Origin: Psammoneis japonica
Taxonomy: Eukaryota
Length of the DNA: 64,000 bases
Assembly (NCBI GenBank): GCA_008632985.1
Contig: QPGO01000103.1
Coordinates: forward strand, 1-64,000
Reading direction: 5' to 3'
The notes under the pieces are model-generated. The model searched no databases and was not told where the DNA came from. It saw nothing but the letters and a program-made list of their open reading frames with translations. Positions 1 to 58,400 of the stretch are shown piece after piece; the first letter of the stretch is position 1; every line of letters starts with the position of its first letter. The position numbers and the translations under genes are program-made.

Positions 1-1196
1 CACTCGCCATTTTCGTGCGAGAACCTCGTGAAAATGGAATTTGCACCAGAGTCTACGTGGCAATGTTTCTGCGGTTTTCGCGCGCAGGATGCAGTGCCCA
101 ATGCACAACGCACAAGACGAAAACGCACAAGACACACAACAACATGCCACACCTCATTAGCAACACCAATCGGCGGTTGTCGAACGTCACATTGCTGCAT
201 TGCCGTCATCACATCATTGCTGATGGTGGACGTGGACACCATGACCAGCCAGCAACCTTCTCTGCCTGGTCAGTTGGGCTGCAACATGGGAGATGCTGAC
301 AGCACGGCCCAAGCCAACAGGGCGGCCACAAGGCTGTGTGAGGCGTTTCGCAATTCGACGGGCAGGCTGCCGACAGCTCAAATGTGTTTTGTCGAAATTG
401 ATGGCGAGAATTTGGAAGCAGAGATGTTTCAATTCTGTTTGTGGATTTCCACCACTCCCATTCCAGCAAACTTTGATGCCAACCTTCAACCCCCGAGGAG
501 TCACAATGCAGACGAGCCCGTCAAGCTGGTGATGGCATCTTCTCTGTCAAAATGCATTGGCAAGGTCATCAAGTTCTTGCGAGAAAAATTTCCAAACCAC
601 CCAGACTTTCAAGGCTTGAGGCCATCAGATGTGCCTGAGTGGTGGAGCAGAATGTGCCCCACTTTTGAAAGAGAGTGCACTCGGCTCCACACGTCTCCAG
701 GCGGTGAACACACATTTGGCAACACTGCCACCCAGCCACTCTGTCAGGACAATCGTCTCTTCCGAGGCAATCAAACCACACCCGGTGATGACATTGGGGC
801 CATGCTTCAGAAGATTGATCTCCTGAGCATTGTCAAAAAGCTTTTCGACAAAGCCACGCTGCTGTGCGACAGGGAAGGAGCCTTGCAGCAGCGATGTTGG
901 CTTGTGATGCTGTGTTTTGCGGTGGGTCGAGGTGGTGAAATTAAGTTCAACAGCTGCATTGATTGGCGATGGCACCCTTTCTTTGAAGTGACAGACACTG
1001 GGTGGGTGGAGCTCAAGCTGCTCCGAAAGCATGCCATGGCAATGGTCCCGCACCGGCTTGAACTCCTCCTGGATTTCTGTCATTGCATGGCAAGCTTTTG
1101 GGCCATGGAAGGTGGCCTGTTTCGTTCTGGTGCAGATGAACAGGCCATTGCCAACTTTGTCTTTCCAGATCTTCACAAGTGCAAGGACAGTCAGGT

Positions 1197-1641
1197 TGCA
1201 ACACACAGCTGCTGACAAGAGTCAATGCATCACGGCGACGTGTCACAGCCTTTAAATGTCACAAAGGGCGTGACAAAATAACCTTTTGTCTGCATGCATG
1301 CTGCATTGTGAATTCACAGCGGAGTGGTTCATCGCAACCATTGGGCAGGAGGCCAGGGGTTCGAAACCCTGAGTGGGAGTTGTCTGCAGCAACGTTGATC
1401 ACTGTCGAACGCGCAAAACTCTGTGCAGTTCTGCATGTTCCTTCGCATGCACCCACACTGTTCCGCCAAAACCGTGCAGTGTCAGTGCACGTCAGCAAAG
1501 AGCCGCGTGGACACGTGATGCATGGGGAGGAGTGCAACACACAGCTGCCAACAAGAGTCAATGTGTCACGGCGACGTGTTGCAGCCTTTAAATGTCACAA
1601 AGGGCATGACAAAATGACCTTTTGTCTGCATGCACACTGCA
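1197..1641 (+). mobile_element. TRIM-like miniature LTR retroelement (445 bp)
   Basis: 109-bp direct repeats at 1197-1305 and 1533-1641, each TG...CA. 4-bp target-site duplication AGGT (1193-1196, 1642-1645). Polypurine tract GGGGAGGAG directly before the 3' repeat. Excision restores the host recombinase frame. Confidence 0.9.
1315..1372 (+). promoter_or_regulatory. tRNA-type RNA Pol III internal promoter-like sequence (A box + B box) inside the TRIM
   Basis: A-box-like CAGCGGAGTGG at 1317-1327 (TAGC.. if a TA>CA change is reversed). B-box GGTTCGAAACC at 1358-1368 within the hairpin CAGGG-GTTCGAAA-CCCTG. Spacing is about 30 bp. Confidence 0.55.
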
Positions 1642-3148
1642 AGGTGACAAAACTTGTCACCAAGATCATTCATGATGATCCACCCGATGATTGTTCCAAA
1701 AATGTTGCAAAGATGTTTTCAGCCAAATCCGGGCGACGTGGCTCCATCACGGAACTCATGGCTCACCCTTCGATTGGGATCAAAGATGTTTGTTGTCATT
1801 CAGGGCACACCACTGGCATGTTGTTGGGTTCCCATGCAGACTGCACTTTGTTTGTGCTGGGACTTGGAGCTGCTGAGGCCCTTTGTCGACATGACAATGT
1901 CGATGTCAACATGCGGGTCCCCCGACTCGAGAGCCTGGGAATGCATGTTGCTGCACAGGTGGAGGAATTGCTGATGAAAACGTTTGTCATTTCAGCACAA
2001 GGATTCAAAGACAAGCAGAGCGGGCTGCACCAAATCCTTCGGACGGGACTTGCATCATTGACAATGTGTCATGTCTGAGTGACCCCAAGAATGCAAGGAC
2101 CACAATGCAGTGGTGACGAAACTTCGCACTGCTGCCAGAAGTGCAAGCATTTCTGATGCCTGATTCCCAGGGATTTCTCCAGACGCTGTTCTTGATGAGT
2201 GGTCCGCCACAATCATGAAAGACTTCCGAGAACGCAATCCAGAAACAGCCCAAGTTGCTCCAGGTGGAGGACAGGCCCAAGTGACAGCGGTTGTCAATCA
2301 ACAGTCAAATGTTCTGTTGGAACCAAGGCAAATGGTGGCAACGCTGTTGCAAGAAAAAGAGTCTGATCGCCGCACTGTTGCCTCATTGCAAATGACCCTG
2401 CACCAGCAACAACACCAAATTCAGGAGCAACAACAAGAACTCCAGGTGTCACGAAGCAAGCTGTCACTGTTGAAAACTCTGCCGGGAGCCAGAGCATCAA
2501 GGCAGCACCCCAGAGAAACCAGCAACGCAGAGGAGAGCAACAAGAGCCCAAGACTAGAAGCGCCCTCACCTGCACAAGCTCCACCAGTCGCAACCGCACC
2601 CAGTGCTGCCGCCGCCGCAACCAGTGCCACCGCCGCCGCCCCACCTGCTGCCGCACCAAACTTTCTTCCAGCAGCTGCAAGAACTTTGACACACAATTCA
2701 GCAGCCAGGGCTGTGGCTGAGAAAAAGGACAACAAGAAAATGATGGTTTCCACGTTGTTGAGAGATTTGTTCAAAGACCGGCAGTTTCACAATGACCCCG
2801 GCTCTTGGAAAAACATCCCAGCTCCACATCACACAAGCGAGAAGTCTCTGCTCAAGCGTGCATTGGAGCTTGTTGAACACGTGGCCCATGAGGAGGACAA
2901 GACAACTCTGGAATCAAAAGAAGTGGACGACAACAACCTGTCTGTGTGCGCAAGGCATCTGGAGGATGGATGCATGGCAAAGATGTTAGAGTTTGAGGGG
3001 GTGAGCCCTGAGGTTCAAAAAACAACTGGGCAGGAAAGGGCAAGACCAAAAGCTTCCTGCTCACCTTGCCCTGGGTGGGCGAGTTCGTGTGCACAAGAAT
3101 GAGCTGAAAAAAATCTTGGACAATGACGAGCCGGGTCCGCCTTTGCAA

Positions 3149-4049
3149 GATCGGCCCAAGCCACCAGAAGGAACTCCTCCCAGACTCGGGTCCAAGAGGC
3201 GGTTTTTTGGAGCCCCCTGAAAATGACAATTGCAGGCATGGCAATGTCGAGGGTGATGTCAGTGGCACACACATTTTGAATTCACCAAAGTGACCCACTT
3301 GTTTGGGCTCTCTTACGATGTGTGTCGGATCGGCCCAAGCCACCTGAAGGAACTCCTCCGGACTCGGGTCCATGAGGCAGTTTTTTGGAGCCCCCTGGAA
3401 AAAGCAATTGCAGGTGTGGCAATGTCGAGGGCAGTGTCAGTGGCAGACACACATTGAATGCACAACAGCAACCTGCTTGTTTGGGCTCTCTTACAATGTG
3501 TGTCGGATCTGCCCAAGCCACCTGAAGGAACTCCTCCAGACTCGGGTCCACAAGGCGGTTGTTTGGAGCCCCCTGAAAACAACAATTGCAGGCATGGCAA
3601 TTTCGAGGGCAATGTCAGCAGTGTGCACATTTTGAATTCACCAAAACAACCTGCTTGTTTGGGCTCTCTTACGATTTATGTCGGATTGGCCCAAGCCACC
3701 TGAAGGAACTCCTCTGGACTCGGGTCCATGAGGTGGTTTTTTGGAGCCCCCTGGAAAAAGCAATTGCAGGTGTGGCAATGTTGAGGGTCATGTTGGTGGC
3801 AGACACACATTGAATGCACAACAGCGACCTGCTTGTTTGGGCTCTCTTGCGACATGTGTTGGATCGGCCCAAGCGCAAGCCACCAGATGGAACTCCTCCC
3901 GGACTCGGGTCCACAAGGCGGTTTTTTGGAGCCCCCTGAAAATGACAATTGAAGGCGTTGCAATGTCAAGGGCAGTGTCAACAGTGTGCACATGTTGAGT
4001 GCACAACAGCGACCCACTTGTTTGGGCTCTCTTGCGACATGTGTCGGAT
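3149..4049. repeat. Tandem array of five ~178-179 bp units with alternating A/B subtypes
   Basis: Units start near 3149, 3328, 3506, 3684 and 3862 (GATCGGCCCAAGCCACC...GTTTGGGCTCTCTT). Confidence 0.95.
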
Positions 4050-7000
4050 GGTGTCATCATGGCCGCCGCTGCTTCGCTCATGTGCGATTTCGTACAACAA
4101 ATTGCTCTAGCCACACAAGGCGTGTGTGCTTTTCGTGCTTCCGCGTGGCAAAGCCGTGCAAAAAGACCCGTGGGTTTTCGCGCTTTCACGCGAAAACGCG
4201 GCTCCGCCGTGAAAACCACGATTTTTCCTGCTCGCACTGGCGCGCCGTCACCCACCCGTCCCAACGCGCCATCGTTCGAAATTGAAAATGGCACACCCGC
4301 ATCTTCTTGCATGCCACGCCATGGTGTGGAAGGGAAAGACACACACATTGTCACATTGGCCGTTGCTTCGTCTGTCTGCCAAACAAGTTGGATCAGTTGG
4401 GATCAAAGTGGTGGGTGGGGTCTGTTGCTGTGCAGATTCACATTCCGGCAGAGTTGTCAGAGAGAAAACACAGGATCAAAGTGAGAGCAAAGAACCCACA
4501 CAAGGCACACAATGCAGCAGCACTGACTGCATGAGCAGCCGCCCCAAGAAAAAACCAGCAATCGGGGCCACATCTGACCAACATGGAAAAAATTTCCAAA
4601 TGAAGCTGACACAGGCTCTGACTGCAGTTGGCGCTGCTGTGGTCATGATGTGCTCTCTCACACATCGACAAAAGCGCAGGTTGGACGAGAAAGGCAGTGC
4701 CCACACTTGTTTGGAGCACCAAAAGTGCCCAATCAACTGTGTGGTCTGGCCACAACATCCCTCTGCCACCTGCCTGTGCTCAGCCCACCACACACATCAG
4801 AGCCCCTGCTGCAACGCCAGAGCCCACATGTTTGCCACCACCACATGCCCCCCTTGCTTCGTTTTCTTGCTGCAAAGATGTGTGCCTTGCTTTGCTCACA
4901 AAGAGAAAAATCACTGAACCCAACCAAACATGTGGAGTGGGTGGCACCAAAAGCTTGTGCACACATGCTTTTGCATGTGTGACAATGGGAAGCTGTGGTG
5001 TGTGATGCTTGAATGAGCGGCTGTGTGCTTTGCCAGCCAAAAAAGTTGCTGTGCAATGGGGCAGGCATCAGATTTGTGAAGTTGGTGTGCAAACAAAACA
5101 GAGCAGTGTGCTTTGTCATGAGATGGAGCAGGCAGGCCTCCTCAGGGTGCATCAACTCCTCTTCATTGTCTTTGTGTCTTTGCCACATCTTCAGAGTGTG
5201 CTGCAAGGTGATCTCCGCATCATTGTCTTCATCTTTCACATCCGTGTGTGTCATCTCATGTGAGGACAGGCATTGTGAAAGTTCACCCACAGCATCAGAT
5301 GACAGACCAACACAAAAGCATTGTCAAAAGATGAGCCTGTGCTGCTTCATCCTCTTGAGATGGAGAAGGGAGCTTGGCTGCAGATTTTTCTGCCACTGCA
5401 CCACTGGTTGTGACACAAGAGAATGCAGCTGCTCACACTCAACAACAACTGGCTCTCGTTGCCCACCTCTTTTAAATCACAATGGTGGGTGCTGGTGCCA
5501 CCACAGCCATTGCTTGCATCTCCTTTGTTGCTGCTGCTCTGGCTGTGCAGATTCATTGTTGTCCCCTTTTTCACTCACAATTTGTGAAGCACCTGCAATG
5601 CAAGTCCACTTGGCGCATCTTAAAAGGACAAATGATGTGATCAAATGACCTCACACCTCAGACAATCATGCGCGCCATTGTCAGAAGGGAGGGGGGCAAA
5701 CACAAGGTTGACAACAAAGTGGGGGGGGACAAAGTTTGGGTGGAAAAATGGTGTGTTTGTTGAATTTCATGGGGAGGGTTGGTGCACTGGCAGAGTGCCA
5801 GGGTGACACATGCATTGGCTGCACTCTTGCATGGTGGCCAACAGAGACCAAACAACCAGCCAAAGTTTCCAAGTTAAGGCCAATGTGAGATTTCAAAATG
5901 TGGTTGACACTGCTGGGACATTGTCGTGAGATGTTGTGAAAAACATTGTGTGAGATTCCACAGCAGCTGGCATGTCTTTTGAAACTAAAAAATCATTGCC
6001 ACCACACACCACAAGTGGCAGATGTGAGGAAACAAAACAAGCAAGTTCCTTGCACAGAAGTGCTTGACAAGCGAAAACAGCAGCATTTTGGCAATGGTGC
6101 AGCACAAAAATGAAAGCCATGCAATGATGTTTTTTTAATGTCTGTGCCATTTTTTTTGTCATTGCAGCCACAAATCAGGGTCATGTGATGATCAAGCAAC
6201 CATGTCTTGCTGAAGCTTGTGGAAAAGCTTTGCAAGACCATGACATGGATGAAATGAAACAATGATGCAATGAGCCAACTTTTTCATTTCATTTTGCTTC
6301 ATTTGCTGCTTGTGTCCTGCCACAAATTTGCACAAACTGTCATTTCTTTTTTCCTGCACACTCAAGCTGCAACAAAGAAAACTTCTGTGACATCATTCTG
6401 GACAAAACACTTGGTGCCCAAAGGCCATTTTGGAGTTCTGAAGGCACTGTTTTGGGAGCTCATTCACAAATGAAATGTTTTTTTTGTTCCTTCATTTTTA
6501 CATTTTTCATGAGCTGGGGCTTGTGACAAACTCTTAAAAAATGTGACATCCAAAGAAAACCAGCTGAAACTCCACATCTTCCTAGAGATTTCTGCTGAAG
6601 GTGTGGCGATGGTTGTTGTTGACCATCGCTGTGTGCAACATGGGAGCAAGAGTTGTTTTCAACTTTGTCATCGCACAACAAGAAGGGGTGCTCTTGCATG
6701 CTGTGCAGCTCACTTCAGAGTGGTGCAGGCCTTTGCTTTCATGTGCTCATGGCTCCACCATGTGAAGTCAGTGCAGCATTGCTCATGACTGACAGCTGAC
6801 AAAGCACACCAGCAGCTCAGACCACCATGCTGCACACATCATTTGGCGGCACCCTGCTGTGTGGCAAAGATTGCGTGATTTGTGAGAAGCGCGCACAGCT
6901 GCAGCTGAATGAAGGAACCCCCTTTTCAGGTGACTCAAGAAGAGGGTGTGCATCCTGTCAATGTGTGGCAGAAAAGGCTTGCAAAGTCCAAGACAGTGTC

Positions 7001-10000
7001 AACAAACTGTTGCCATCAGGCAGCACTGCCACAGACATTTGTTGTGCATGGCTGTTTTTGTGCCAACAGCAAGCATGGTGCACTGGGTGGCAGATCAGCT
7101 GCTGTTGCCTGGTGAAGAAGCAAAAGAGCGCCAAACAAAGTGCTTTTTCAACTTGGCTTCAGCTCTCAGCCAGAAAAGATTGCATGAAGAACAAAAGCTG
7201 TTCCAGGTCATTGGCTGATGGATGCAAAGCAGTGCAAGTGTTGAAAGTGCAGCTGACAAAACCAGCAGCAGCTCTTTGCAGCTGTGCCCTCCTTCATCAT
7301 GATGTTTGCTGGAGACAGACAGCTGTCTGCCTGTGGCTTGATGACAAGCCACCTTGCAGCCATCTTCTCACATCAAACAGCACCTGGCAGGCTGCACTGC
7401 AGCTGGTGAGAAATGAGAAGCACCTGTGAAAATGTGCCAGCTGGGGTTGTTTTTTGTTTCTTGCAACGCCCAAAGAACAAGGTGATTGCTGCCATGACAA
7501 CCACCCTGCTTCTGCTGTTGCTTCCTCTGTCTGGCACTGCCTGCAAGTCTGTCTCATTTTTGAGGTTGCTGTGTCAAGCACTTGATGCAAAAGTCATGAG
7601 AAGCAAAAACCCTTCAAGATGCCAACATGGCAAAGCCTTGCATGGAATTCTGTGCTTGGCAGCTGAAGCAGCAATCATCTTGAAAGAGTTGATGCTGCTC
7701 CTCAATTTGAGATCAGAAGAGTGAGACAAAGAATTGAGGGCATGATCTCAGCTGAAGCAGGAACCAAAATGCTCAAAGAAACAGGGAAGGCAAGACCAGA
7801 AATGTCATTTGACATGATGGTGGCACAGCTTTCAGCAGCAGCTGGTGGCCAACTGTGCAATGCTGGAGGTGCAATGGAGAAGGTGGCAGCAAGGAGAGCA
7901 CCCACTTGGAGCAATGGACAAGTGGCACTGGCATCATGCAGCCAAAATGCTCTGCAGTGCAGCAAGAGAGGGGACAAACAAAATGTGAGTGCCAAAAAGC
8001 AAAGTGCTGCTGTGCCCACCCAGCACAAGCAGCTCAGAACTCTTCACAGAGCAGCGACATGGTGTGAGGTGGGAGGCAAGCAGCTGGTGCTCCAGTGTGA
8101 AAATGTTTGCCAGCAGCCTGGAGAGACAGCACTTGGGTTGGGGCTCAATGCACTGGACAAGAAATGGGAGCATTGGCTCTTGCACATGCATGAAATTTGA
8201 TGCTTTGCTGAATGGCTGTGTGTGTCGTTGTCTCCATGAACACAGAGCTGAGACAAAAGTTTAAATTTTCAAGGATGAACACCATGTCATTTTTCATTCT
8301 TAGAGAGAGGGACATCTGTGACATTCTTGGGCTTCACTGTTTGCCTGCAAAGACTTTGAACAATGACGCCAATGGTTGGGTTGTTTTGTTCAACTCAGAG
8401 GAAACTGCTGATTTGGGGAGATGATCCAGCGTGGGGCAAGAAGATTCTTTCATGCTTTTGAATGATTCAAGGGCTGGCTGCAGGTGATGTGAAGGATTTC
8501 AACAAGTGCATCATGATTGCATCTGGGCCTGGCAACAATGCTGCTAGATCAAAGGAAAGCAACATCTCCAGCAACGCAACCCATGCTGTTGCCGCCAATC
8601 TCAACAGGAAGCAATGCTGTCAATGATGGCATTTTCAAGAAGGTGTCAGAAGGAACACACTCAAAATCTCTTGCACAGTCACCTCCAACCCACACCATTG
8701 TGGGCTGCGCAAGCAACTTCAAGTGGAAAAGCAGGGAACCAGGTGCAAGCATGTGGGTTTGCAAGATGAGAGCTGCCCAAGAACATTTTGTTTGCAGCCC
8801 TCTGTTTCATGTGGCTCCAGGGAGAGAGACATGTGCACTTAACTTTCTTGTCCCTGTGATGGGTTTCATTGACAAGAAAACTCCAAGAATCAGTCAGAGG
8901 ATGCAGATGACTCAGCCCCCAGTTTTGTGCAACACAGTGCAACAACTCTGTGCAAGCTCCAGGGGAGGACAGTTGAGAGCCTGGTTCTTGCCAACAACTT
9001 TGACTGCAAAAAAAAACCAAACCTGATTTAAAGTGCTGTTGCACCTTTGCCCAGCAACACCGGCGCCAGCCAACTCACACCTCCGGCACACCCCAAAATT
9101 GGTGCGGCAGAAGTGCGCGCAATTGGCCTGAATTGGCGTCTCCCTGAGGAGACGCCTGATGGAAACAGTTGGTGCAGAGAACACAACAACACTTGGAGTT
9201 TGCTGCGGCACCACAGAGGACAGTTGCATTTTTGGGAAAAACTCACATGAGAGCCATGAAAGAAGCCAAAAGGAAGTCAAAGGAAGAGTGCCAAACCACT
9301 GGCTGTCGCTCATCAAGGGGGAAACCTCATTCAAACCTTGAAGAAATGAAACAACAGAAAGATCACTGCATGCAACAGAGAGCTTGGTTTGCCAGCAAGC
9401 AAGGGAGGGTTCATCCAAGACTGGGAGACAAGAAACAGGAGCACTTGATGATTCGGCGAGTCAGTCGTCAGGAAAGACATTTTCCATGCGTGGAAACCGC
9501 GCTGGGTCTTGCACAGAAATGCCGGTGCACACAGCAAATGGATGGCAGTCACTTGTTGCCAAAGGGAGGTTTGCACTCACACTTTTGTCAGCTTCACAAC
9601 AGAAGCAGTGCTTTCACCACAAGCAGCGAAGGACTTGATTGGCCAACGGGAACAAAGAGAGTCATTGGAAACGGAAGGGCATGGGGCATGAGAAGCTCGG
9701 AGACTTGACAAAACATTCATTGTTGGGGTTTGCCAAAGCATGTGGAATTTGCACTGAAGTTCTTGGATCCGCAGAAAACAACGAAAATCATGATCAATGT
9801 GCAGCAAACGACCCACAAGGAGTCGACGCCAATCATTCTCCACTTGGTGACGTTGCCAAACATGCTGAAACAAAGGCACACCATTGACAGAAAGGGCCAG
9901 CATGGTCGTGGGAGACCCAGCAAAATGCCATCTGAGAAGGGCAACATCAGCACGAGAGCGTGCGCAGAGACACACTCAGGGTTTCTTGGTGGGCAGCTGC

Positions 10001-11045
10001 CGCAGAATTGCAACAGCTTTGACTGCAGAGACAACTGGGTTCAGGTGGTTCCATCCAGAGTGACAACAAGAAAGGGACTTCATCTCAGAAAGCCAAGATG
10101 CTTGGTGGCATGAAAGCAAAGGGCATGTCACTGGCATTGAGTGAGTTCCTTGGTCACTTTGGGCGTGCAAGAGGGCTCCAATGTGGCTCTCAGACTCCTG
10201 CTGCAAATGACCATGCAAGGCATTGCAGCTGATGACTGTCATTTGCATTGTCTCTGCTTTCAATGTGCAAGGTGTGGCTTTGACAGCATGCCCTGCTGCT
10301 TGTTGCTCAAAGAACAATGAAGCACTGCCTGCCCCCCAGCTGGCATGCCCAGAGTGTGGCACGCCCAAAGAAGAAGCACAAACCGGCATGGCGGGTGTCT
10401 CAGCTTGTGTGGAGCACACAGCAAGAACAAGAGATGATGAACCCGGGGTGCAGAGACAGCACAGCGGTGGAGAGCTCGTCGTTGTGTGAGTGCTTCAAAG
10501 ATGTCTGTCTTCCCTTGCTCAGTTGCGGTCCGCTCCCCCAGCCACAGAGCCTCCTGATGGTGGGCAGGCAGCCAGACTTCAAGGTCATCTCAAATGACTT
10601 GAAATGACTGCAAATGACTCGCTCTGCCTGTTGACAAATCACGAGTCTCGCACATACACATCATCATTAGCATAAAATAGAAATCAACATTTATCGGATA
10701 ACATGTTTTCTTAAATACTGTATGTGTATCGGACTATTGGAAAATGTTCACTCATTTAGTCTATCATTACATTTGAAACTTTTTTACATAGGGAAATTGT
10801 GTTCAACGGATATCCTTAACAAAATGAACAATCTTCGTTCATTAAGCTTATATTACATCTCAACTGCTCTCCAAGAGTCGATCAAAATTTCAAAGACCAC
10901 CGCATGCACCACGCGTACAGTACCGAAGCCACGTTGATTTCTACGTGAGTCGGAGCATCAAGCCGTTGGAGGCACCACGCATTCGCAGAGCGGGACATCA
11001 TCTCTTTTTTCATTCGTTTGCCTCACACACACGACGAGAATCACC

Positions 11046-49449: not shown

Positions 49450-52400
49450 ATCCCGTTGCTTCAACAAGACCTCGAATCTCGCATGGTGCAGAGCTCGTGA
49501 ACAGGAGGTGCCCTTTTGACTGTGATCTCTCTGTTTCTCAGTGCTGTCGTCATGACACACCAGTCTGAAAAATCTGGATTGTCTTGCAAAAATGCTTGCC
49601 ACATGAGAGAGGCAGAACCAGGAGCAGCTCCCCCACTTTGTTCTCTTTCTTGTGTCCAGAGTGCTGGGGGCTGGCTGGGAGCAAGGGCCAAAGCTTCTGT
49701 GGCACGCTCCAGCTCTGGGTGGGGCCTCGCACTGCTGAGCTGTGACATCAAGAGTTTTTTGGATCATGCTGCATGTCACACACATGCACATCTGCATGTG
49801 ATCTTCTATGAAATTGTTTCATGCTCCCTGTTTTGCGAAGCCAAAGGCTGCCCATGATTTTCGACACTCGCGAGAATGAAAATGTGGGCTGGGTGACGTG
49901 CCCCAGCTGCACATGAACCAAAACATGCAGAAAAATGACATTGGTGCAATTTTCTCACAGTCTTTGACTTGCAAACAAGCTTTCACCACCAAAAGCATGG
50001 GCTTGTCCAAATTTTGATGTTTTGCAATGCTGGCAAACAAGATTCACGTCAGCATTGCAACATTGTCGTCTTTGTGCAACACATGTTTTTTCATTGCAAC
50101 AAACGAGTTGCAACACAACAGATGTGTTTCACCAAATTTTGAACATTCATGTGCCATTGCTGTTTTGAGGTGCCAACACAAAACATTTGTGTGCACGCTT
50201 CGTTGTGGCAGTCTGCTTGCACAAAATTTTCTGCAATGTGAGCACTGACGTGCAGTCAGCATTGTTTCTGCAGAAAAATTTTATGACGTGCATTCCATGA
50301 AGAATTGAACACCCATGAAAAAATTGTTTGAATGTTCCTTTGCACTCCAACTGGGCATGAAAGCCAGGTGCGCAAGTGTTTTGACAAACAGCTTCAATGC
50401 ACGAAGCTTGCACAAGTTGTGCTCAAAAGGAGGGATCATCATTTTGTGCATCCCCCCGGGCTGGAACATGTTGGGTGTGTTCTTCAATGTCTGCAGAACA
50501 CACCCATGCAAACCATCAACAATGCACTTCAAGTGTGAAGGAGGAGATGTGTTTGCAAAACTGCCTCTTTTTCTGTTGGAGATCACCCACATTTTCGCTG
50601 CTCAACAAATTCACTGCAGAGCTCACATGCAGAATTCTGTGGCTCAAATGTCACACGGAGTCCCACCTGGTGGAGTGGAGCATGTCCTTTGGACACAATG
50701 ACCCAGAGGCCACCAGGTGTGGGGAGCTTGGACAGTGCTTCTCTTTTTGCCACACCCAAGTTTGGCTGCAGTGCTGCTCTCCAGATCTGCAGCAGGGTGT
50801 TGGCAAGTCTGTGATTTGCTGCCCTTTGCAAGTTGTGCCCTGCAGCTGACAAGCAAAGAAAACAATGAGGCAGGGGGGGGGCAGAAGAGAGGCAGGTCTG
50901 CTGGCAGGGCACTTCGTGTCATGTTTCCCAGCAAAAGCATTTCACCTTTCACACCCCCCAACAAACAGGAGGCTGCAGTCTGTCCTGTTGCACACACAAA
51001 CACTTGGAGAGAAGTGAGAGTGGGGCTCAACAGCAAGGGAGAGAGTGGGGAGTGCAGTGCTTCTGCGTGTCTGCAGTGGCTTCAATGGACCATGTGTGTG
51101 CACCCCCTTTTGCATGGTGTGATGTCTGTGGGGTTAATTGCGAAATGTGGCATCATCAGCAATCTCCCTCCATCAAAAAATTTAGCACACAAAAGTGCAA
51201 AGTGCACAAAGTGAAAAACACCGACAACCATGACAAGCACCGTCAGACAAAATGCCATCCCAGAGAGCCAGCTGATGGCCTCCACTTGCCCCTTTCAAGG
51301 AGATGACACAAGACACACCAAAGAGTTGGTGGTTGAAAAGGGGCAAGTGGAGATCAAAGAGTCAAACAAAAAACACAGGATTGCACTGAGAGAGAATTTT
51401 GCTGGATTTCTCCATGGTGTGAGGATGCAGCAAGAGTGGTGGTTCCCAATGAAGACAAGGGAAGCATTGGAAATGGGCAAAGGCCAGCAGAAACACTTGT
51501 TGGCACCTTGCTTGGGGGTTTGAAGTTGACGTCATGCAAGCTCGCAATTGCTGTTCTGGCTGAGACAAAAGGAAAAAGGAGACAACATTGTTGTGAAGCC
51601 GACAAAGTTGAGTGGTTTCTTCCATGAGCACTGCCTGAACAACAAAGTTGTGACAAGGAAATTTGGCACTAAAACAAATGGCAACAAGGTGCACTTTGTC
51701 AGAGTTGGTGGTGATGGTGACAGTGCAAAGGCTTTGGCAACAAAGGACCAGTTTTCCTGGGACAGAGAAGACCAACCAGAAATGCCAAGGTGCCAAGTGA
51801 CCAAGCTGCATCACAAACTCACTGTTGGGGTCAATGAAACTCTGCTGAGCACACTTGAAGAGTTTTGCATGGACAAGAACTTGACAGTTGAAGAGTCTGA
51901 AGGTGAAGAAAAAGATGTGAAAGATGACAATGCCCACGCAAAAATGAAGAAGAACATGAGGCACCCAAACCTGCATCAGCTGTCCCCAAGGAGGAGGAGA
52001 AGCAATCAGAGGAACCAACTTGGGAAGCTCTGGAAATGGAAAAGGGTGTGCCTGTAGATGACACTTGCTTCCCACAGCTGTCCAGGTTTGGCAATGGCAC
52101 AAAGGAGTGGGAGCTGTTGGCATTGGCACAAGATGTTGCAAAGTTCCGACAAGATCAGAGCCAAGATGCCATTGTTGGTGACTGCGATCCAATGCTGTTG
52201 GCGCCAATCCCCAGCACACGGCAAGTGAACTGCAAGAACTTTTGCAAGGGCTGTCAAAAATGGAAATGGCCTCAAAAGGTTCTGGAGCACATGGGAGGTG
52301 GTGCAAAGACCAAAGACAGCAATGCTGCCATCTCATTGGGAGCCGAGTGGCTTTGCCAGTGGCTGGCTGCTGAGCACAAAGTTGAGTTTCTCACAGCGGC

Positions 52401-55400
52401 AAAGGAAGCTGGCACCCCAGTCACACAACAGATGAATCGAACATCTGCAGGTGCCATGTGGAGTCAAGCCAATGTCAACGTCAATCAGCAGAGAACAACA
52501 TTGCAGCATCTCCACTGCCAGCTGGGAAGAAAATTTTTGTGCTGGAGAAGGATGTCCAGTCACTTGGTGATGGATTCATCCCCGCAAGCTGTGGAAAGTG
52601 CCGCTGCAAGAAAGAAGAAGGGAAGACACTGGAAGTCATTGATTGCTGGTCATGCTCTGTTCCAGAGCTGGTGTGCGCTGAAACAAAATTCCAGCTGAAG
52701 AAGAAGCAGATCGCTGCTGCAGAACATGATGGGGAAAAGGAGGAGCTGCCATTGGCCAGTTGCATGACTCATGATGGCAAGGGTTGGGGAATTGTGTGTG
52801 GAGGCAATCATGGAAAAAAGGGGTGGGCTGGTGTTGCCAAACTGTTCACCCACAGTTCATTGCACAGAAGATCTCCAAAGGAAAAAACTGCTCATGTTCA
52901 AGACAGTGAGCAAACAACAAAGGGTGGGTGCAGCACACTCAAGCACATGCAAGCATGCAGTGCACTGAGGACAGCTCTGAAATGCTGGCTGACACAGTCT
53001 CACTTTCCATCAACAAGGGGATGGAAAAGACAGTTTTGTCTTAACTTGTCGGCACGCAACAAGGAGAAGGGACTGGCACAGAGGCCGAGACAAGGCTCAT
53101 CCCCAAGGAGGCGTTTGCTGCATGCACAGTGGAGAAGGAGTCAATCAATGTGTTGCAGCGCAGCACCACAAGTGGTGAAGAAGGCACACCTGTTTCCATT
53201 GTTGGTGAGGCACTTGCTTTGCAGGGTGGGTTTGCAAAATTGTTCTCACCGTGCCCAAGTTCACGATCCACATCACTGGAGACCTCACGTTTTGTGCTGA
53301 TGTCCTTGGGAAGCCCAACTCAAGTGGGCATTGGCGCCACATTTGCCTGCTGAACTGGATGGAATGAAATTAGTGTCAGCATGAAAAAAGAGAGAAATGG
53401 ACAATCAAGAAATTGAAAGCTGTGCTTGAGAAGTTTCTCAACTTGAAAAGCACTGACACAGTCATGGGGGTGTGGGAATCAATGCACTGTGCCAAAGTCA
53501 GTCCTTGCCTGTGTGTTTGTCTGCCTCTTCATGTTGGAATTGAGCTGTTCAACAAGGTGTGGGATGAGTTTGCAGAGTGGATTGATGCCAAGTTAGAGCA
53601 ATTTGATGGTGAAGAGGTTGCAGTGCGGGTCAAGGCATTTGCTGCAAAAAGTGTGCTGGATGCTGCCACAGAGGTGCAAGCTCACACCAAAGATGTCACC
53701 AAGCCAGAAGAGGAGAGGGCAAATGACTTGGGTGAGCAAGCAAAGGCGATGGAGTTGGCAACAGCAATGGTGGAAAAAACAATGCAAGAGTCAAAGACGG
53801 GTGTGAAGAGAAAAAGTCCTCAAATCTTGCAAAGATGCAGTGGCCAAGCTTGAGAAGGATCGTGGGTGGCCAGTTGACAGCACAGCCATGCAGGTTGAGA
53901 TGACTCTGAAGAAGCATGGCATCAACAGGGAGGCGTGCCATGGTGGCAACTTTGACGGTGTGTCACGCCGCAGGTTGGGCACCTCCATTGCTGACATCAT
54001 GCCAGAAACAAGAGAGCAACTGCTTCAAGCCAGAAAGCAATCTGATTTGACTGATGCAGAGGCAAAACAAAAATGTGACATGCACGGGACTCTGCTTGGT
54101 TGGCTGGATGCCTTGTTCTCTTCAATGCAAGCCATCCACCCATTTGACAAATGAGGAGCTTGAGGAAACTGGAAAGTGCGCTGACCTTGTTGCAGAACTT
54201 TGGTTTGAGTTGGGTGTGTTGGTCATGACAAAAATGCACCAGGCATTGGATCATCTTCTTGACCAAGCACGGGATCTTGGCAAAGTTGGTGACAAGTTAA
54301 AACACCACATCGAGGCCGAACATCAAGTGTCTGCAAATGCTGCCAAACTGGCCCAGTGCATCCCAAGGTGCAACCAAAAACATGACTGTCAGCTGTGAAA
54401 TTGTGAAATTGAAGACAACTCAGTCACAATCTTGCAGAAGGAAAAGCTTGCAAAGGGGTGCAAGCAAACTTTGAATCCTGAGCATGAAAAGTCTCACACG
54501 ACAGCTTCAAAAAGGCAAAGGCAGTGAAGACAGAAAAACAAGAGAACTCCAAAGATGGCAAAAGTGCACAACACCAGTGTGGCTTCTTTGCACTCTGCCT
54601 TTCTTCCTTTTGTTTGGATTTTGCAATTGACAATGCACTGAGATGATTGCAGTGCAAAGAAAGTGCACCGCTGTGCTGTGACTGCAGTGTTTTGGTGTCA
54701 AAAAGACATTTTTTGGCTCCAAGCCTTGGATTTGTGAGACATCATCACTGTGTGGAAATGCACACAGAGATTTGGTGCACATCAGGTGAGCACCACATTC
54801 TGCACACAGGGTCCCCGTGCACATGCGTGAAACCATCCTGACTGGCGGGCTTCTTTTGTTGTTGCTGCTGACTGTGAGGACGAGTCATTGTCTGGTTGTG
54901 AAAAGCATGCAAACGTCCATGACTGTGTGCAAAAATGGTGTTGTGCATGTGCACAGACTTCATGTGGAGTTGTCTGTGTCCGGAAGGCTGCACAATTTGC
55001 TCCATGCCAAAAACCTGCCCGAACATGTCACCAAAATCTGGGAGGTCAAGAGAAGAGCAGGGGAACTCTGTGAGCTCTCCAACCTCAGGGCAGCAGGGAG
55101 TGGAGCAAGTGCATGTCATCTCAAGGCTGGATTGTCACTTGGTGGTCAATTTTGTTTGGGGCTTGCAAGCACCCAAAAATCACTCAGATTCGTCACACCA
55201 ACAACAGTGTGCACGTTCACCAAAAATGTGCCCAGCAACAGGTCGAACTTTGTCCATTTGCAAGATGTCATGGAGTGCATGCACAATGAATGCATGCAAG
55301 GGTTTGGGATCTCCAGAGCAACAAAAGCAGATGTGTCTGCAGCCAGTCAAGCACCAGTTGTTGGCCTTTCCTGGAAAGTTGCAGCTTGTCTGTCACCAAC

Positions 55401-58400
55401 AGCCCAATTTTGGCAAAAAACAGCGGTTTGTTGAATGTGACAACTGCGCCCAATGTGACAATTGGCATTTGAAGGTTGATCAGTGCAGCTCATGTGAAGG
55501 TCCAACAGCCCTGATGGGGGCCACACACACAAGTGTTTGGGGGTGCTCAGAGGCATTGCAAAACAACACGGGCAAAGTGCGAGAAAACTGTGAAATCATG
55601 AGCTGTTTAAAAAAACACCGCCAAACAATGATCCAGCCTTGATCCCGCACATTCCTTTGAATCATTCAAGCAGTTGCATGCACTGCCAAGACCAAATGTG
55701 GTGCAAGCTGCAAGTTCCTTTAAAAACAGTCTAAGCAGATGTGTGGCCACAACCATCATAAGAACCTGTCCTGGCTGGATCACACCCATGATCACATGAC
55801 ATCATGCAGCCTTTTTGCTGATGTTGCAGAGTCACACTTGTGAGTGCTTTCCAAACTGAATCATGCAGCACTTTTGTGCATGCCCCAACTCCTTTGTCAA
55901 TGAATGAATGTGCGACCATGTTAATTTCACACATTTCATTGCTGCTGCAGGTTTGATCATTCAACCAGAGCATGAAACCAACTGCATCGATGAAGGCGGA
56001 TTGAAACAGAACAAAAACACACAATGAGAACGGTGCCACCATGACAACAAGAATGCAACCACGGGGCTAAAACAAGCCATGTGAAGGAGACAAATTGATC
56101 ATAAAATCAAACTCATGCATGACTTGTGTGTGGTGAGCAACTTCTTCATTGTGTGAGCATCTGCCTGGAATTGCTTGAGAGAAGGTTCAGCAAATTGCTG
56201 TGCATCATGATGAGACAAGAGTGGTGCGCAAAGCACCTCAACACTGAAAGTTTCTTGCATGTGATCACACCACAGGTTTGTCTTGGATGGGACAAAGCCA
56301 CGCGCACTTTGGTTGCATCAAAAAAGCTGCTTCTGGGTCATTTCGTGTGTTGACCCAGAGGGTGTGATGTGGGGGTGTGACCTCGAGCATGTGTGCACGG
56401 TCATTGGGCTGTGCAGGTGTGTGCACATGTGTGAGGTGCAAGCACAACACATGCAGAATTGGCACTGACTGAGTTGACATGCGGTGGATTTTCCGCCAGT
56501 GCACAATCTACGTGGTCTGCATGGAAGACAAAATTGTGTTGGTCTCTTGTGGTTTCACATGTCATTGAAATTTCTTTGGCCTTGCAGAGATGCACACCCA
56601 AATTCAAAAAAGTGAGGAACACCCCAAAACACATTTTAGAGGATGAACAAAAAAAATTCTGTTTGACGGTCTGAACAGGGTCACCCTGAAGCTCTTCTCA
56701 AATTATTTTCAGCTTCCACAGAGCAAAAAATCCACTGTTGCTGAAAAAGAAGCACCGTCGATAAAATGGACCCCCCAATCCTTCACATGCAAACAGCAGC
56801 ACAACGTCAACACCCAACAACACCATGGCAAGCAATGCAAGTCTCATCCACTGATCTGCTTGCAGGCATTTCCAGAGAAGATCAACACAGTTGGACAACA
56901 TTTGGGCACTGCATTCCTGGGCAAAGTTGGGTTTCTTCTCATTGCTTGTTGTCGTGTCATTTTACAATGTTTTGACCATCGTGCATTTTTGCTTTGAAAC
57001 TTCTGGTTGCACCAACCAACAACAGCTTTTTCTGCAGGGTGTGGCCAGTTGGACAGTCACATTGAACCCAAACGTGTGCAACCAAGTGGCCCCACCCTGG
57101 CTGACCAACATTTCCAGAGGAACAGTGATGTCAGGTGTGGTCAAATGCATGACCCAGTTTGTTTGGAGAGGGTCCAAAGGACAGCTCATTCGAACATGAC
57201 ACAAGCTGGCACTTGTCTTGCACCTGTCCTTTGTGCAGCACACATTGCAGAACTCGCGCGCCACACTGCACAGCAGCCCCACAGTGATGTTCGAAGTTTG
57301 CCCCCACCGACGGAAGTTGAAGCCAATCAGAAGAGCTCAATTCAGGTGCAAATGTGTCAAGACCATCAATTGTTTTTTTTAAATGCACATCATCTTCATT
57401 TGACATTTCATTCCTTTTCTCCCACAGACAGACACCAACTCAACCTCAAATGGGCACAACACACTGATGACTTTGAGTTCACTGACCAGCTCATCCCTCC
57501 ATCCGACTTCAAATTTTCAACCCATTTTCTCTCTCATTCCCTCACTGAAGTTGAGTGCCGCATTGCACATGTTGTTGAGCATGAGCCCTGATGAACAACA
57601 AAAATGAAAGACACCGCCAATCACTTTGGTGGCACCGTGGGCATTCAGTTGCAGAATTGAAAGAACCCAATGAAAAAGGCAAAGAAAAACATGCACTCTC
57701 ATCTTGCTTGCATCAGCACAGGTTCATCATCCCCATCAAGACCAGCCCCAAGGCAAGTTCAATTGAATGTGTTTGGAATGGTTGATGACCAATTTGACAA
57801 TGGAGGGCAGAAACACAAGCAATGCAAACAAGGTCCCACCCACAAAAAGGGCCATGACAAGACCTGCTCCCATTCCAAGCACTGCATGAAGAGTGGGAAT
57901 GCAGTCAAGGTTGAGAAGAAACTCCAAGACCAAGACAACATCAGCCATGAGGTTCTAAATGGGATGAAACACAGTGGCAGAATTTGGGCCCTTCTTTTTT
58001 TTCAGCAGCCAAGAAGCACTGTGGAATCCAAAAATGGCTCTCCACCCAACACAAAGGACCCACCTCCAACTCTGACTGCTGTGACAATGAGCGCCAATGC
58101 CACACCATCCTGCTCAAACACAACCCTCTCTCACCGCAAGTGCTGAAAGAAGAAACAAAAAAGCAGATTCCAAAATTTTCTGCCAACAAGTCATCCTTTC
58201 CAGCAAGCACGCAAGCACTTGTGTTGCTTTCCATGACTTGTGTCTGTCCAGATTCAAGAGCGATTCAAATGACATGAGACATCATGGATCAGAAGCTGCA
58301 ATGGCATCAGAAACAATTTCCTGCTGGGACTCTGTCATTTGCTGTGCCACAAGATGACAAGTCTGTTGCTCCAGATGCTGTGCACTGTGAGATTGAGGGT

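Follow-up and report, generated by a model that had tools for sequence, protein, structure and literature searches.

A recombinase gene in a repeat island depleted of TpA

The stretch of DNA analysed here (the window) comprises the first 64,000 nucleotides of a Psammoneis japonica contig (QPGO01000103.1). It begins with an island of repeats that is almost free of TpA and poor in CpG, and the island encloses a broken gene related to tyrosine recombinases (Table 1). TA rho is 0.03-0.05 in 2-kb segments of the island (1 to 10,000) and 0.38-0.79 outside it (12,000-48,000). The border is sharp, with 0-1 TA per 500 bp up to 10,499 and 23-25 thereafter, and the island runs unbroken over several unrelated repeats. 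Pfam had no match among the 23 ORFs of at least 110 aa that overlap 3,100-10,800, and neither a second copy of the recombinase gene nor a second copy of the 445-bp insertion that splits it was found elsewhere in the window. The 5′ side of the element leaves the window at position 1 and its 3′ side enters the 178-bp tandem array.

Table 1. Positions of the island, the recombinase pseudogene and the repeats associated with it, in window coordinates.
Feature	Position	Strand	Remarks
TpA-free, CpG-poor repeat island with the recombinase gene inside	1..10499	.	Edge at about 10,500; defined by TA rho and TA counts
Pseudogene, piece 1	241..1194	+	Frame 1, ATG at 241; N-terminal domain and first half of catalytic domain; 58-61% identity to relatives
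Active-site residues of piece 1	928-930; 1015-1017	+	R-I; hairpin K
Tyr columns of piece 1	553, 742, 913, 955, 1078; 1030	+	Now Cys at the first five; now His at 1030
High-copy insertion	1197..1641	+	445 bp; LTR-like direct-repeat ends
Direct repeats of the insertion	1197-1305 and 1533-1641	+	109 bp, each TG...CA
Pseudogene, piece 2	1644..2084	+	Frame 3; K-x-x-R at 1725-1727 (K) and 1734-1736 (R); H at 1806-1808
Nucleophile codon	1833-1835	+	CAT (His) in place of Tyr
In-frame stop of piece 2	2076-2078	+	TGA
Four-C run	2082..2085	+	+1 frame shift; the alignment to relatives switches from frame 3 (to 2084) to frame 1 (from 2086)
Pseudogene, piece 3	2086..3042	+	Frame 1; conserved post-catalytic region, coiled-coil stretch, C-terminal region
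In-frame stop of piece 3	2161-2163	+	TGA where the relatives L001 and P0005 have Arg
Second frameshift and C-terminal tail	3043..3220	+	Frameshift 3043-3061; tail in frame 2, 3062-3217; stop TGA 3218-3220
Tyr columns of the C-terminal tail	3062 and 3092	+	Tyr-to-His
Tandem array	3149..4049	+	178 bp x 5; starts within the last codons of the recombinase gene

A preliminary description of this DNA had treated 900-1840 as a single reading frame and had expected the mutational process to leave a long ORF behind. Neither holds here: the frame is interrupted by the insertion, and the copy also has two frameshifts, as well as TGA stops in frame at two places. The first of these shifts may be peculiar to this copy or may stem from faulty assembly, because the sole source-sample contig that covers the site lacks one base at position 2083; the sequencing runs were all taken from a single sample within one study, probably the one behind the assembly, and are not independent of it. 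Mis-annotation of such remains as a Cys/His-rich gene, which had also been anticipated, was not seen: none of the five matches of a protein search, the best of which has 61% identity, is a copy of the window ORF.

The family has the predicted fold of tyrosine recombinases

The family to which the gene belongs has 894 representatives, its full-length proteins are 700-900 aa long, and a cluster look-up gave no name or accession beyond ‘hypothetical protein’. A Phage_integrase profile search, proposed earlier as a check, was empty. Pfam, including PF00589, yielded nothing beyond chance coiled-coil matches in the three window pieces (E up to 1) or, with DUF3504 considered as well, in 24 family members (E up to 0.1); DUF3504 did not match the three window pieces either. 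Searches of the PDB by sequence were empty for a single sequence and returned coiled coils only for a profile. Since the profile search had failed, the case for the fold was made from structure.

It was judged on an AlphaFold model (pLDDT 88.9, pTM 0.86) of P0002, the closest intact relative, which is 58% identical to the window. Among the Foldseek matches listed, all those with E ≤ 0.015 are tyrosine recombinases (Flp, Cre, lambda Int, XerH). VIA-align superimposed residues 12-376 of the model on residues 27-319 of Cre (Z 15.8, 272 residues, rmsd 3.9 Å), and also matched the model to Flp (Z 14.9), Tn1549 integrase (Z 12.7), lambda Int (Z 12.4) and Ndc10 (Z 11.6), the last of which is described as Crypton-related by Kojima & Jurka (PMC3212892). 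As judged from this model, the family is a two-domain tyrosine recombinase, and the predicted fold of the relative is the one that the preliminary assignment called for.

The relationship to Cryptons is supported by two observations. First, on the 3,859-bp contig of the relative L001 the only ORF of at least 100 aa is one of 826 aa, that is, a recombinase and no reverse transcriptase, as in CryptonS; the window ORFs, which have no Pfam match, agree with this, the upstream side being cut by the window edge. Second, the language-model neighbours of the family (Atlas clusters) are diatom and oomycete proteins, followed by the Crypton-derived families NDC10_II, GCR1_C and DUF3504. The label Crypton-like, and a resemblance to CryptonS, are supported but not proven, the support for kinship with described CryptonS recombinases being indirect. 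A metagenome scan with a five-row alignment led to one locus.

The nucleophile and all other tyrosines have been lost

We aligned 72 family members with the window pieces. The family displays the ordered active-site set of R, hairpin K, x-x-R, H/W and Y, with K or R at the position of the first His: R-I is Arg in 71 of 72 rows, the hairpin residue is Lys in 72 of 72, the first position of K-x-x-R is Lys in 46 and Arg in 21, R-II is Arg in 67 of 70, and the H/W position is His in 48 and Trp in 16. At the nucleophile column 65 rows carry a residue; it is Tyr in 64 of them and His in none, the sole exception to Tyr, P0001, having an out-of-register tail. The window matches this set residue by residue (R, K, K, R, H) until, nine residues beyond the active-site His, a second His stands where the nucleophile should be, in the frame encoding ...SGHTTGMLLGSHADC. 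Five of the six residues are kept and the set fails at the Tyr. Both the R...KxxR...H-x8-Y pattern and the CAT codon at its end, noticed in the preliminary description, are therefore real, and His as the ordinary state of homologues, which would have spoken against a conversion, was found in 0 of 65. By its sequence, the window copy is a derived, inactive member of the tyrosine recombinase superfamily. As even the nearest intact relatives share no more than 50-61% identity with it, TAT as the ancestral state of codon 1833 is inferred and not observed.

The loss extends to the entire protein. None of the 798 translated codons of the window gene encodes Tyr, compared with 2.86% in 17 close relatives (neighbouring genes have 2.84%), and the calculated probability of such an outcome at the frequency of the relatives is ~1e-10. 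At the ten columns where Tyr is the plurality residue, the window has Cys five times, His twice and other residues three times; the 28 Tyr residues of L001 align with His (7), Cys (6), Phe (5) and other residues (10), and never with Tyr. Four Cys positions had been proposed earlier as former Tyr sites. Three of them, SKCIGK (553-555, TGC), PLCQDN (742-744, TGT) and DFCHCM (1078-1080, TGT), align with columns that have Tyr in 63 of 67, 64 of 70 and 44 of 72 rows, respectively. The fourth, MLCFAV (913-915, TGT), aligns with Tyr217 (TAT) of L001, but Tyr is not the plurality residue of the family there.

Probable transitions at TpA

Every Tyr codon begins with TA, so the conversion of TA to TG or CA removes all of them; that it makes no stop codons, as had been reasoned from the sequence, follows from the genetic code and agrees with the data. 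By the same code, a one-step change of Tyr to His or Cys is a change of TA to CA or TG. Tyr columns alone can therefore not separate a TpA-specific process from ordinary transitions, and the case for TpA specificity rests on dinucleotide counts.

In the gene span (241-3220), TA occurs 6 times against 168.5 expected, TG 285 times against 167.7 and CA 323 times against 203.9. A local loss of TpA that is balanced by gains of TpG and CpA, neighbouring DNA being spared, is the pattern that defines TpA-restricted hypermutation. Of the TA sites of L001 that could be aligned, 128 in all, one is TA in the window, 23 are CA and 22 are TG, whereas the other dinucleotides of L001 are kept in 23-45% of cases. 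At 226 columns conserved in close relatives, the window has 52 mismatches, 10 of which are undone by reverting TG or CA to TA; the three other A-to-G contexts account for 1-3 mismatches each, and a shuffle control reached 10 TA-reversible mismatches in 0 of 2,000 trials. The amino acid excesses forecast for such a process appeared in part, with Leu-to-Pro found twice among the conserved-column mismatches and neither Ile-to-Val/Met/Thr nor Val-to-Ala present.

Neutral decay of an old pseudogene, accompanied by methylation-driven CpG decay and no TpA-directed process, would account for some of these observations. CpG is depleted in the gene span (105 observed, 202.8 expected), and 7 of the 52 conserved-column mismatches, among them Arg-to-His twice, can be put down to CpG decay, which also fits the Arg-to-stop change at 2161. 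However, CpG decay makes TG and CA and cannot remove TA. The near-absence of TA from the span, the survival of a single L001 TA site, the small share of the other A-to-G contexts and the sharp island border all argue against this explanation, which we consider very improbable.

We propose instead that the DNA of the island took A:T-to-G:C transitions almost solely at TpA and on both strands, and that CpG decay acted in addition. The Tyr codons would thereby have become His (CAx), Cys (TGx) or other codons. The nucleophile, whose role is to form the 3′-phosphotyrosyl link to DNA, would have been among them, and the product of this copy would be unable to cleave DNA in the manner of a recombinase. 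The chemistry may be adenine deamination, as hypothesized in a preprint on Bigelowiella natans (Mettrop et al. 2026, bioRxiv 10.64898/2026.01.13.699255). TA sites that survive lie in the context TTAA in 18 of 50 cases, compared with 57 of 1,498 TA sites in normal DNA, which suggests that the putative enzyme does not accept an A with a second A after it.

A nested insertion as a time marker

The insertion has the features of a retroelement-like sequence: TG...CA direct repeats at its ends, a polypurine run (GGGGAGGAG) directly 5′ of its 3′ repeat and a flanking 4-bp AGGT duplication (1193-1196 and 1642-1645). The summed contig depth over it is 20,000-123,000, compared with 65-356 on most of the gene, and loose ends (unmatched contig ends) are found at 1197, 1305 and 1642. 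L001 is uninterrupted at this point, and excision of the insertion restores the junction of DSQ with VTK, matching the relatives. A GT..AG intron at 1195-1643 was considered and dropped in view of the duplication, the terminal repeats and the purine run; the high depth with loose ends at the repeat ends and the uninterrupted L001 also speak against it, although splicing of the insert is possible. Within the insertion, 1356-1368 resembles a tRNA T-arm; ARAGORN and Rfam found no tRNA or structured RNA in 1-11,000.

The two repeats differ at six sites only, namely four TG/CA doublets, one TA/TG and one CG/CA. The TG/CA doublets could descend from CG equally well as from TA, but an origin from TA is favoured because three of the four visible CpG sites are intact in both repeats, which by parsimony leaves decay at only one of eight site-copies. 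A second marker is a sibling copy in the source sample, which has TGC (Cys) at the Tyr column 1030-1032 where the window has CAT. Both indicate changes on resident DNA. The tandem array, a third potential marker, is ambiguous because CpG decay yields the same doublets; it was rejected as a clock, its doublets being a mixture of CpG-derived and TpA-derived sites.

ADAR enzymes favour a 5′ U. This preference, together with the retroelement-like nature of the nested insertion, would fit ADAR-type editing of double-stranded transcripts followed by entry into the genome through reverse transcription. Several observations point the other way: (i) the host element is recombinase-only, L001 having no second ORF that could encode a reverse transcriptase; (ii) the repeats of the insertion were presumably identical when it arrived and now differ at TG/CA sites, so that the changes postdate integration; (iii) the island is continuous over several unrelated repeats and has sharp borders; and (iv) the two strands are hit equally (23 CA, 22 TG). 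Editing of RNA is, in our estimate, just as improbable as neutral decay. Changes made in place, on DNA, after both the copy and the nested insertion had landed would explain the same observations. As the gene is split by an insertion whose repeats have lost TA since landing, the Tyr-to-His change was probably not the event that killed it; with so many lesions in the copy, it need not be.

Selection offers another way to lose a catalytic residue. Domestication of Crypton recombinases has happened repeatedly, the catalytic Tyr being lost in the process (Kojima & Jurka 2011, PMC3212892), and the window retains all the active-site residues but one, so the copy could be a host gene that gave up catalysis like the DUF3504 genes, with His as the selected state. 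However, the intact frame of DUF3504-type genes is missing: a high-copy insertion splits the frame, TGA stops lie at 2076 and 2161, and there are two frameshifts. Moreover, Tyr was lost throughout and not singly, the non-coding flanks have lost TA to an equal extent, and no relative has His at the nucleophile column. The domestication reading is close to refuted. Least probable of all is an assembly or sequencing artefact, for although one frameshift lies in a homopolymer run and the single contig short of one base at 2083 means that small assembly errors are possible, separately built contigs from public runs (same sample and study) match TA-free stretches of the window exactly, one at 431-654 (224 nt) and another at 2531-2682 (152 nt), and an artefact would not end sharply at gene borders.

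Combining these findings, we conclude with high confidence that 241-3220 is a dead transposon gene for a tyrosine recombinase of a Crypton-like, recombinase-only stramenopile family, whose tyrosines were removed by TpA-directed transitions. A broader proposal is more doubtful, and we put it forward tentatively: a DNA-level mutator in the alga may target TpA in repeated or foreign DNA and, because it cannot make stop codons, may silently disable every enzyme that depends on Tyr, tyrosine recombinases and YxDD reverse transcriptases among them, while leaving their ORFs in place.

Discussion

The copy described here displays the effect of a TpA-erasing mutator on a protein at a textbook residue, the catalytic Tyr being gone while the remaining active site is readable. 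It also belongs to a large recombinase family that escapes every Pfam model, so that live elements and Tyr-free remains alike will be missed by annotation pipelines. The sparing of TTAA may add a context rule to a process that is in print from one preprint on another alga and, if true, the rejection of A followed by A would be a usable fingerprint for finding the deaminase.

Like Cre, Flp and lambda integrase, the family has, in its model, the two-domain fold and the active-site order R, hairpin K, x-x-R, H/W, Y. The H/W-x8-Y spacing of Cre, lambda Int and XerD equals that of the family. It differs from Cre, Flp and lambda Int in sequence (about 10-13% identity, no match to Pfam PF00589), in having Lys or Arg at the His of H-x-x-R, and in its extra coiled coil and C-terminal region.

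The closest described transposons are the CryptonS elements of oomycetes and Phaeodactylum tricornutum (Kojima & Jurka 2011, PMC3212892), in which, as in the family, a tyrosine recombinase is the only enzyme and, as far as that account describes them, a GCR1_C domain is absent. Their sizes are alike at about 3-5 kb (4,671 bp for CryptonS-1_PTri; compare the L001 contig). CryptonS elements end in short direct repeats and lack terminal repeats that are inverted or long. Most of them are reported to have TATGG as terminal direct repeats, and the diatom one CTGTAAG (PMC3212892). The family departs from the R-H-R-Y tetrad given in the same paper in having Lys/Arg at its His, and the motifs GRGGE and RSGH are absent from the six supplementary files of PMC3212892. 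The taxa agree, the nearest protein clusters of the family being from diatoms and oomycetes; the likeness to CryptonS is one of description.

Dinucleotide-specific transitions that are confined to repeats and kill transposon genes are familiar from repeat-induced point mutation (RIP) in Neurospora and other fungi, which converts CpA to TpA and enriches TA. The process recorded in the window is likewise dinucleotide-specific and acts in repeated DNA, but its direction is opposite: TA is erased, and of 54 mismatches at columns conserved in the family none runs in the RIP direction.

A TpA-erasing process was found in print only in the 2026 preprint on B. natans; by title and abstract, the papers listed for diatom transposable elements and TpA depletion held nothing on the topic and, by title and the start of the abstract, those listed for Crypton or tyrosine recombinases in diatoms held nothing on hypermutation. 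The preprint describes hypermutation of integrated viral DNA at TpA only, yielding TpG or CpA, and an enrichment of transposon domains among low-TpA coding sequences (10.64898/2026.01.13.699255). The host is different, and so is the degree: the giant-virus region has a rho of 0.45, whereas the island of the window is near saturation at 0.03-0.06. Furthermore, CpG depletion accompanies TpA loss in the island, where the process is read from the sequence. The two cases are alike in that A-to-G and T-to-C changes occur only at TpA and that the effect is regional, adjoining DNA being unaffected (10.64898/2026.01.13.699255). If true, a process shared with a chlorarachniophyte would point to a eukaryotic genome defence that is either old or repeatedly acquired.

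A dead recombinase gene and its relatives

The window holds a dead Crypton-like recombinase gene that has been hit by a TpA-erasing process. Relatives retrieved by sequence search (five matches in one search, the best at 61% identity, and 894 representatives at E ≤0.001 in another) are 700–900 amino acids at full length, and their matches to the window fall into four pieces. An intact relative is present on a metagenome contig, L001 (3,859 bp, observed/expected TA ratio, rho, of 0.89), as a single ORF of 826 amino acids; no second ORF of at least 100 amino acids was found on its 3,859 bp.

Features of the recombinase gene and the second TA-free island (window coordinates)
Feature	Position	Frame or extent	Remark
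Piece 1	241–1194	frame 1	alignment to relatives
445-bp insertion	1197–1641		separates piece 1 from piece 2
Piece 2	1644–2084	frame 3	alignment to relatives
In-frame TGA	2076–2078		lesion
+1 frameshift	2082–2085		lesion, in a C-run
Piece 3	2086–3042	frame 1	alignment to relatives
In-frame TGA	2161–2163		Arg at the same place in L001 and in P0005, a protein relative
Second frameshift	between 3043 and 3061		lesion
Piece 4	3062–3217	frame 2	alignment to relatives
Second TA-free island	49,500–60,300	~10.8 kb	abrupt borders

The downstream TGA fits conversion of a CGA codon by CpG decay. At position 2083 the sole source-sample contig has one base fewer, and the +1 shift may therefore be unique to this copy or reflect misassembly. 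At 3149–4049 lies a tandem array of five 178-bp units (82% matches). It starts within the final codons of the recombinase and thus repeats the element's 3′ end in tandem.

The recombinase fold and its active site

The profile search suggested in the preliminary description gave no Phage_integrase match: Pfam was silent on the window pieces and on 24 family members, apart from chance coiled-coil matches, and searches of PDB sequences matched nothing relevant. The AlphaFold model of P0002, the closest intact relative (58% identical), was built from a 72-row alignment and has a pLDDT of 88.9 and a pTM of 0.86. For this model, Foldseek ranks Flp, Cre, lambda integrase, and XerH highest. VIA-align superimposes model residues 12–376 on Cre residues 27–319 with a Z score of 15.8 (272 residues, rmsd 3.9 Å), followed by Flp (Z of 14.9), Tn1549 integrase (12.7), XerH (12.7), lambda Int (12.4), and Ndc10 (11.6). 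On this predicted structure, which is clear where sequence profiles are silent, the family belongs to the tyrosine recombinases, the fold that had been proposed from the DNA alone.

The conserved columns of the family track the recombinase active site: an Arg (71 of 72 rows), a hairpin Lys (all 72), a K-x-x-R motif ending in Arg (67 of 70), a His (48 rows) or Trp (16 rows), and, nine residues on, a Tyr (64 of 65). The first column of K-x-x-R (K345 of P0002 in the family alignment) is that of the His in the usual H-x-x-R motif; of the 70 rows occupied there, 46 have Lys and 21 Arg, unlike the R-H-R-Y tetrad given for Cryptons. In alternating His with Trp and in its nine-residue spacing, the family matches Cre, lambda Int, and XerD, and the point at which the superposition on Cre stops (model 376 on Cre 319) fits the presumed equivalences H372 = W315 and Y381 = Y324.

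Loss of tyrosine by a TpA-directed process

The R...KxxR...H-x8-Y pattern described earlier can be placed residue by residue in the window (R 928–930, K 1015–1017, K 1725–1727, R 1734–1736, H 1806–1808), and the family Tyr column at 1833–1835 reads CAT, a His codon. None of the 65 rows has His in this column; the sole non-Tyr row comes from a relative, P0001, that is misaligned in its tail. The additional sites at which a Tyr had been suspected are likewise Tyr columns (553, 63 of 67 rows; 742, 64 of 70; 1078, 44 of 72) or, at 913, pair with a TAT of L001.

The translated window gene contains no Tyr in 798 codons, as opposed to 2.86% in 17 relatives, and is richer in Cys (3.26 vs 1.97%) and His (3.51 vs 2.55%), a gain that roughly equals the missing Tyr. 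Opposite the 28 Tyr of L001, the window has His (7), Cys (6), Phe (5), or something else (10), and never Tyr. In the genetic code, every one-step change from Tyr to His or Cys is a TA change, and the TpA specificity thus rests on dinucleotide counts and not on Tyr columns. The 128 aligned TA sites of L001 read TA once, CA 23 times, and TG 22 times in the window, near-equal counts that speak against a strand bias, while its other dinucleotides are kept at 23–45%. Both the observation of His at the nucleophile codon and its interpretation as Tyr loss through TA-to-TG/CA change hold.

Six close relatives agree at 226 columns, and at 52 of these the window differs. Undoing TA-to-TG/CA changes explains ten of these mismatches (Y>C 3, Y>H 3, L>P 2, N>D 1, R>G 1), a number attained by none of 2,000 shuffles; the three other A-to-G contexts explain one to three each and CpG decay seven. 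Of the predicted changes, Y>C, Y>H, and L>P occur among the TA-explained mismatches, which include no I>V/M/T or V>A.

Probable timing of the TA loss from a nested insertion

The recombinase placed at 900–1840 by the preliminary description is real, but the 445-bp insertion within it was overlooked. The insertion has a 109-bp direct repeat at either end, both TG...CA, a purine run, GGGGAGGAG, directly 5′ of its 3′ repeat, and a 4-bp AGGT duplication on both sides; its removal in silico restores ...DSQ|VTK... exactly as in the relatives. The summed depth of source-sample contigs on it reaches 20,000–123,000, compared with 65–356 on most of the gene, and these contigs have unmatched ends at 1197, 1305, and 1642. 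These data make it a discrete mobile element of very high abundance, and its features suggest a small LTR type; no further copy was found within the 64-kb window. Its interior (1321–1380) contains a tRNA-like T-arm, CAGGG GTTCGAAA CCCTG, at about 1352–1372 and a D-loop-like AGTGGTT stretch; ARAGORN and Rfam made no call at 1321–1380.

The two repeats differ at six sites only: four TG/CA doublets, one TA/TG, and one CG/CA. If they were identical on arrival, all later changes fell at TA-derived or CG-derived sites. The doublets could come from CG, but TA ancestry would be more economical because three of the four visible CpG sites of the repeat pair are intact in both. Such post-arrival changes imply that much of the TA loss postdates the split of the gene, and the Tyr-to-His change is thus probably not what killed this copy.

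One or more diverged siblings also show up in the source-sample contigs, with, for instance, 11 differences over the 150 nt of 816–965. The differences in X1, a sequencing run of this sample, are mostly transitions (134 vs 20 transversions). Among those listed, the Tyr column at 1030–1032 reads TGC in the sibling and CAT in the window, as would be expected if TAC-G had changed separately in each copy, ending as Cys in the sibling and, with an added CpG change, as His in the window. All four runs share one sample and one study, from which the assembly was probably made.

TA-poor islands

The gene lies in the first of two near-TA-free islands (the first 10.5 kb and ~49.5–60.3 kb), in which rho is 0.01–0.06 for TA and 1.5–2.0 for TG and CA, and CG is depleted. 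Their borders are abrupt, with TA per 500 bp rising from 0 to 25 at 10,500 and falling from 23 to 1 at 49,500. The DNA between them (TA rho 0.38–0.79) carries ordinary eukaryotic genes: 15 of 22 long ORFs match Pfam, including LMBR1, RanBP1, cyclophilin, UCH, Fam20C, and UDPGT, and Tyr makes up 2.84% of 12 of these ORFs when pooled. None of 56 ORFs of at least 110 amino acids within or at the edges of both islands matches Pfam (0 of 33 in the second island). Since TAA and TAG are gone and TGA is the sole stop left, long ORFs are open in all six frames of the first 5 kb (1–5,000), which 57 ORFs of at least 50 amino acids overlap, and gene finders could predict false genes there.

With the islands taken as 1–10,300 and 50,000–59,900, TTAA holds 18 of 50 surviving TA, compared with 57 of 1,498 in normal inter-island DNA (Fisher p ~1e-12). 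TTAA is the sole context in which the target A precedes another A on both strands. Because surviving TA is concentrated there, the mutator may disfavour an A after its target.

Comparison with known systems

CryptonS elements are described as encoding a recombinase only, with a conserved C-terminal region, and as residing in oomycetes and diatoms (Kojima & Jurka 2011, PMC3212892), a description that the window element resembles on each point. In a language-model search, its nearest clusters are from diatoms and oomycetes, ahead of the Crypton-derived families NDC10_II, GCR1_C, and DUF3504. By description and by these neighbours, the element is likely a CryptonS.

Fungal RIP works in the direction opposite to the TA-erasing pattern of the window. 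To the TpA-erasing process, already known from one preprint (10.64898/2026.01.13.699255), this locus adds a catalytic nucleophile that was hit, evidence on timing (from a nested insertion and one sibling copy), a recombinase family invisible to Pfam, and a possible TTAA-sparing rule. The window shares the mutation pattern that this preprint reports for integrated viral DNA of Bigelowiella natans, for which adenine deamination by an ADAT2-like enzyme is proposed (Mettrop et al. 2026).
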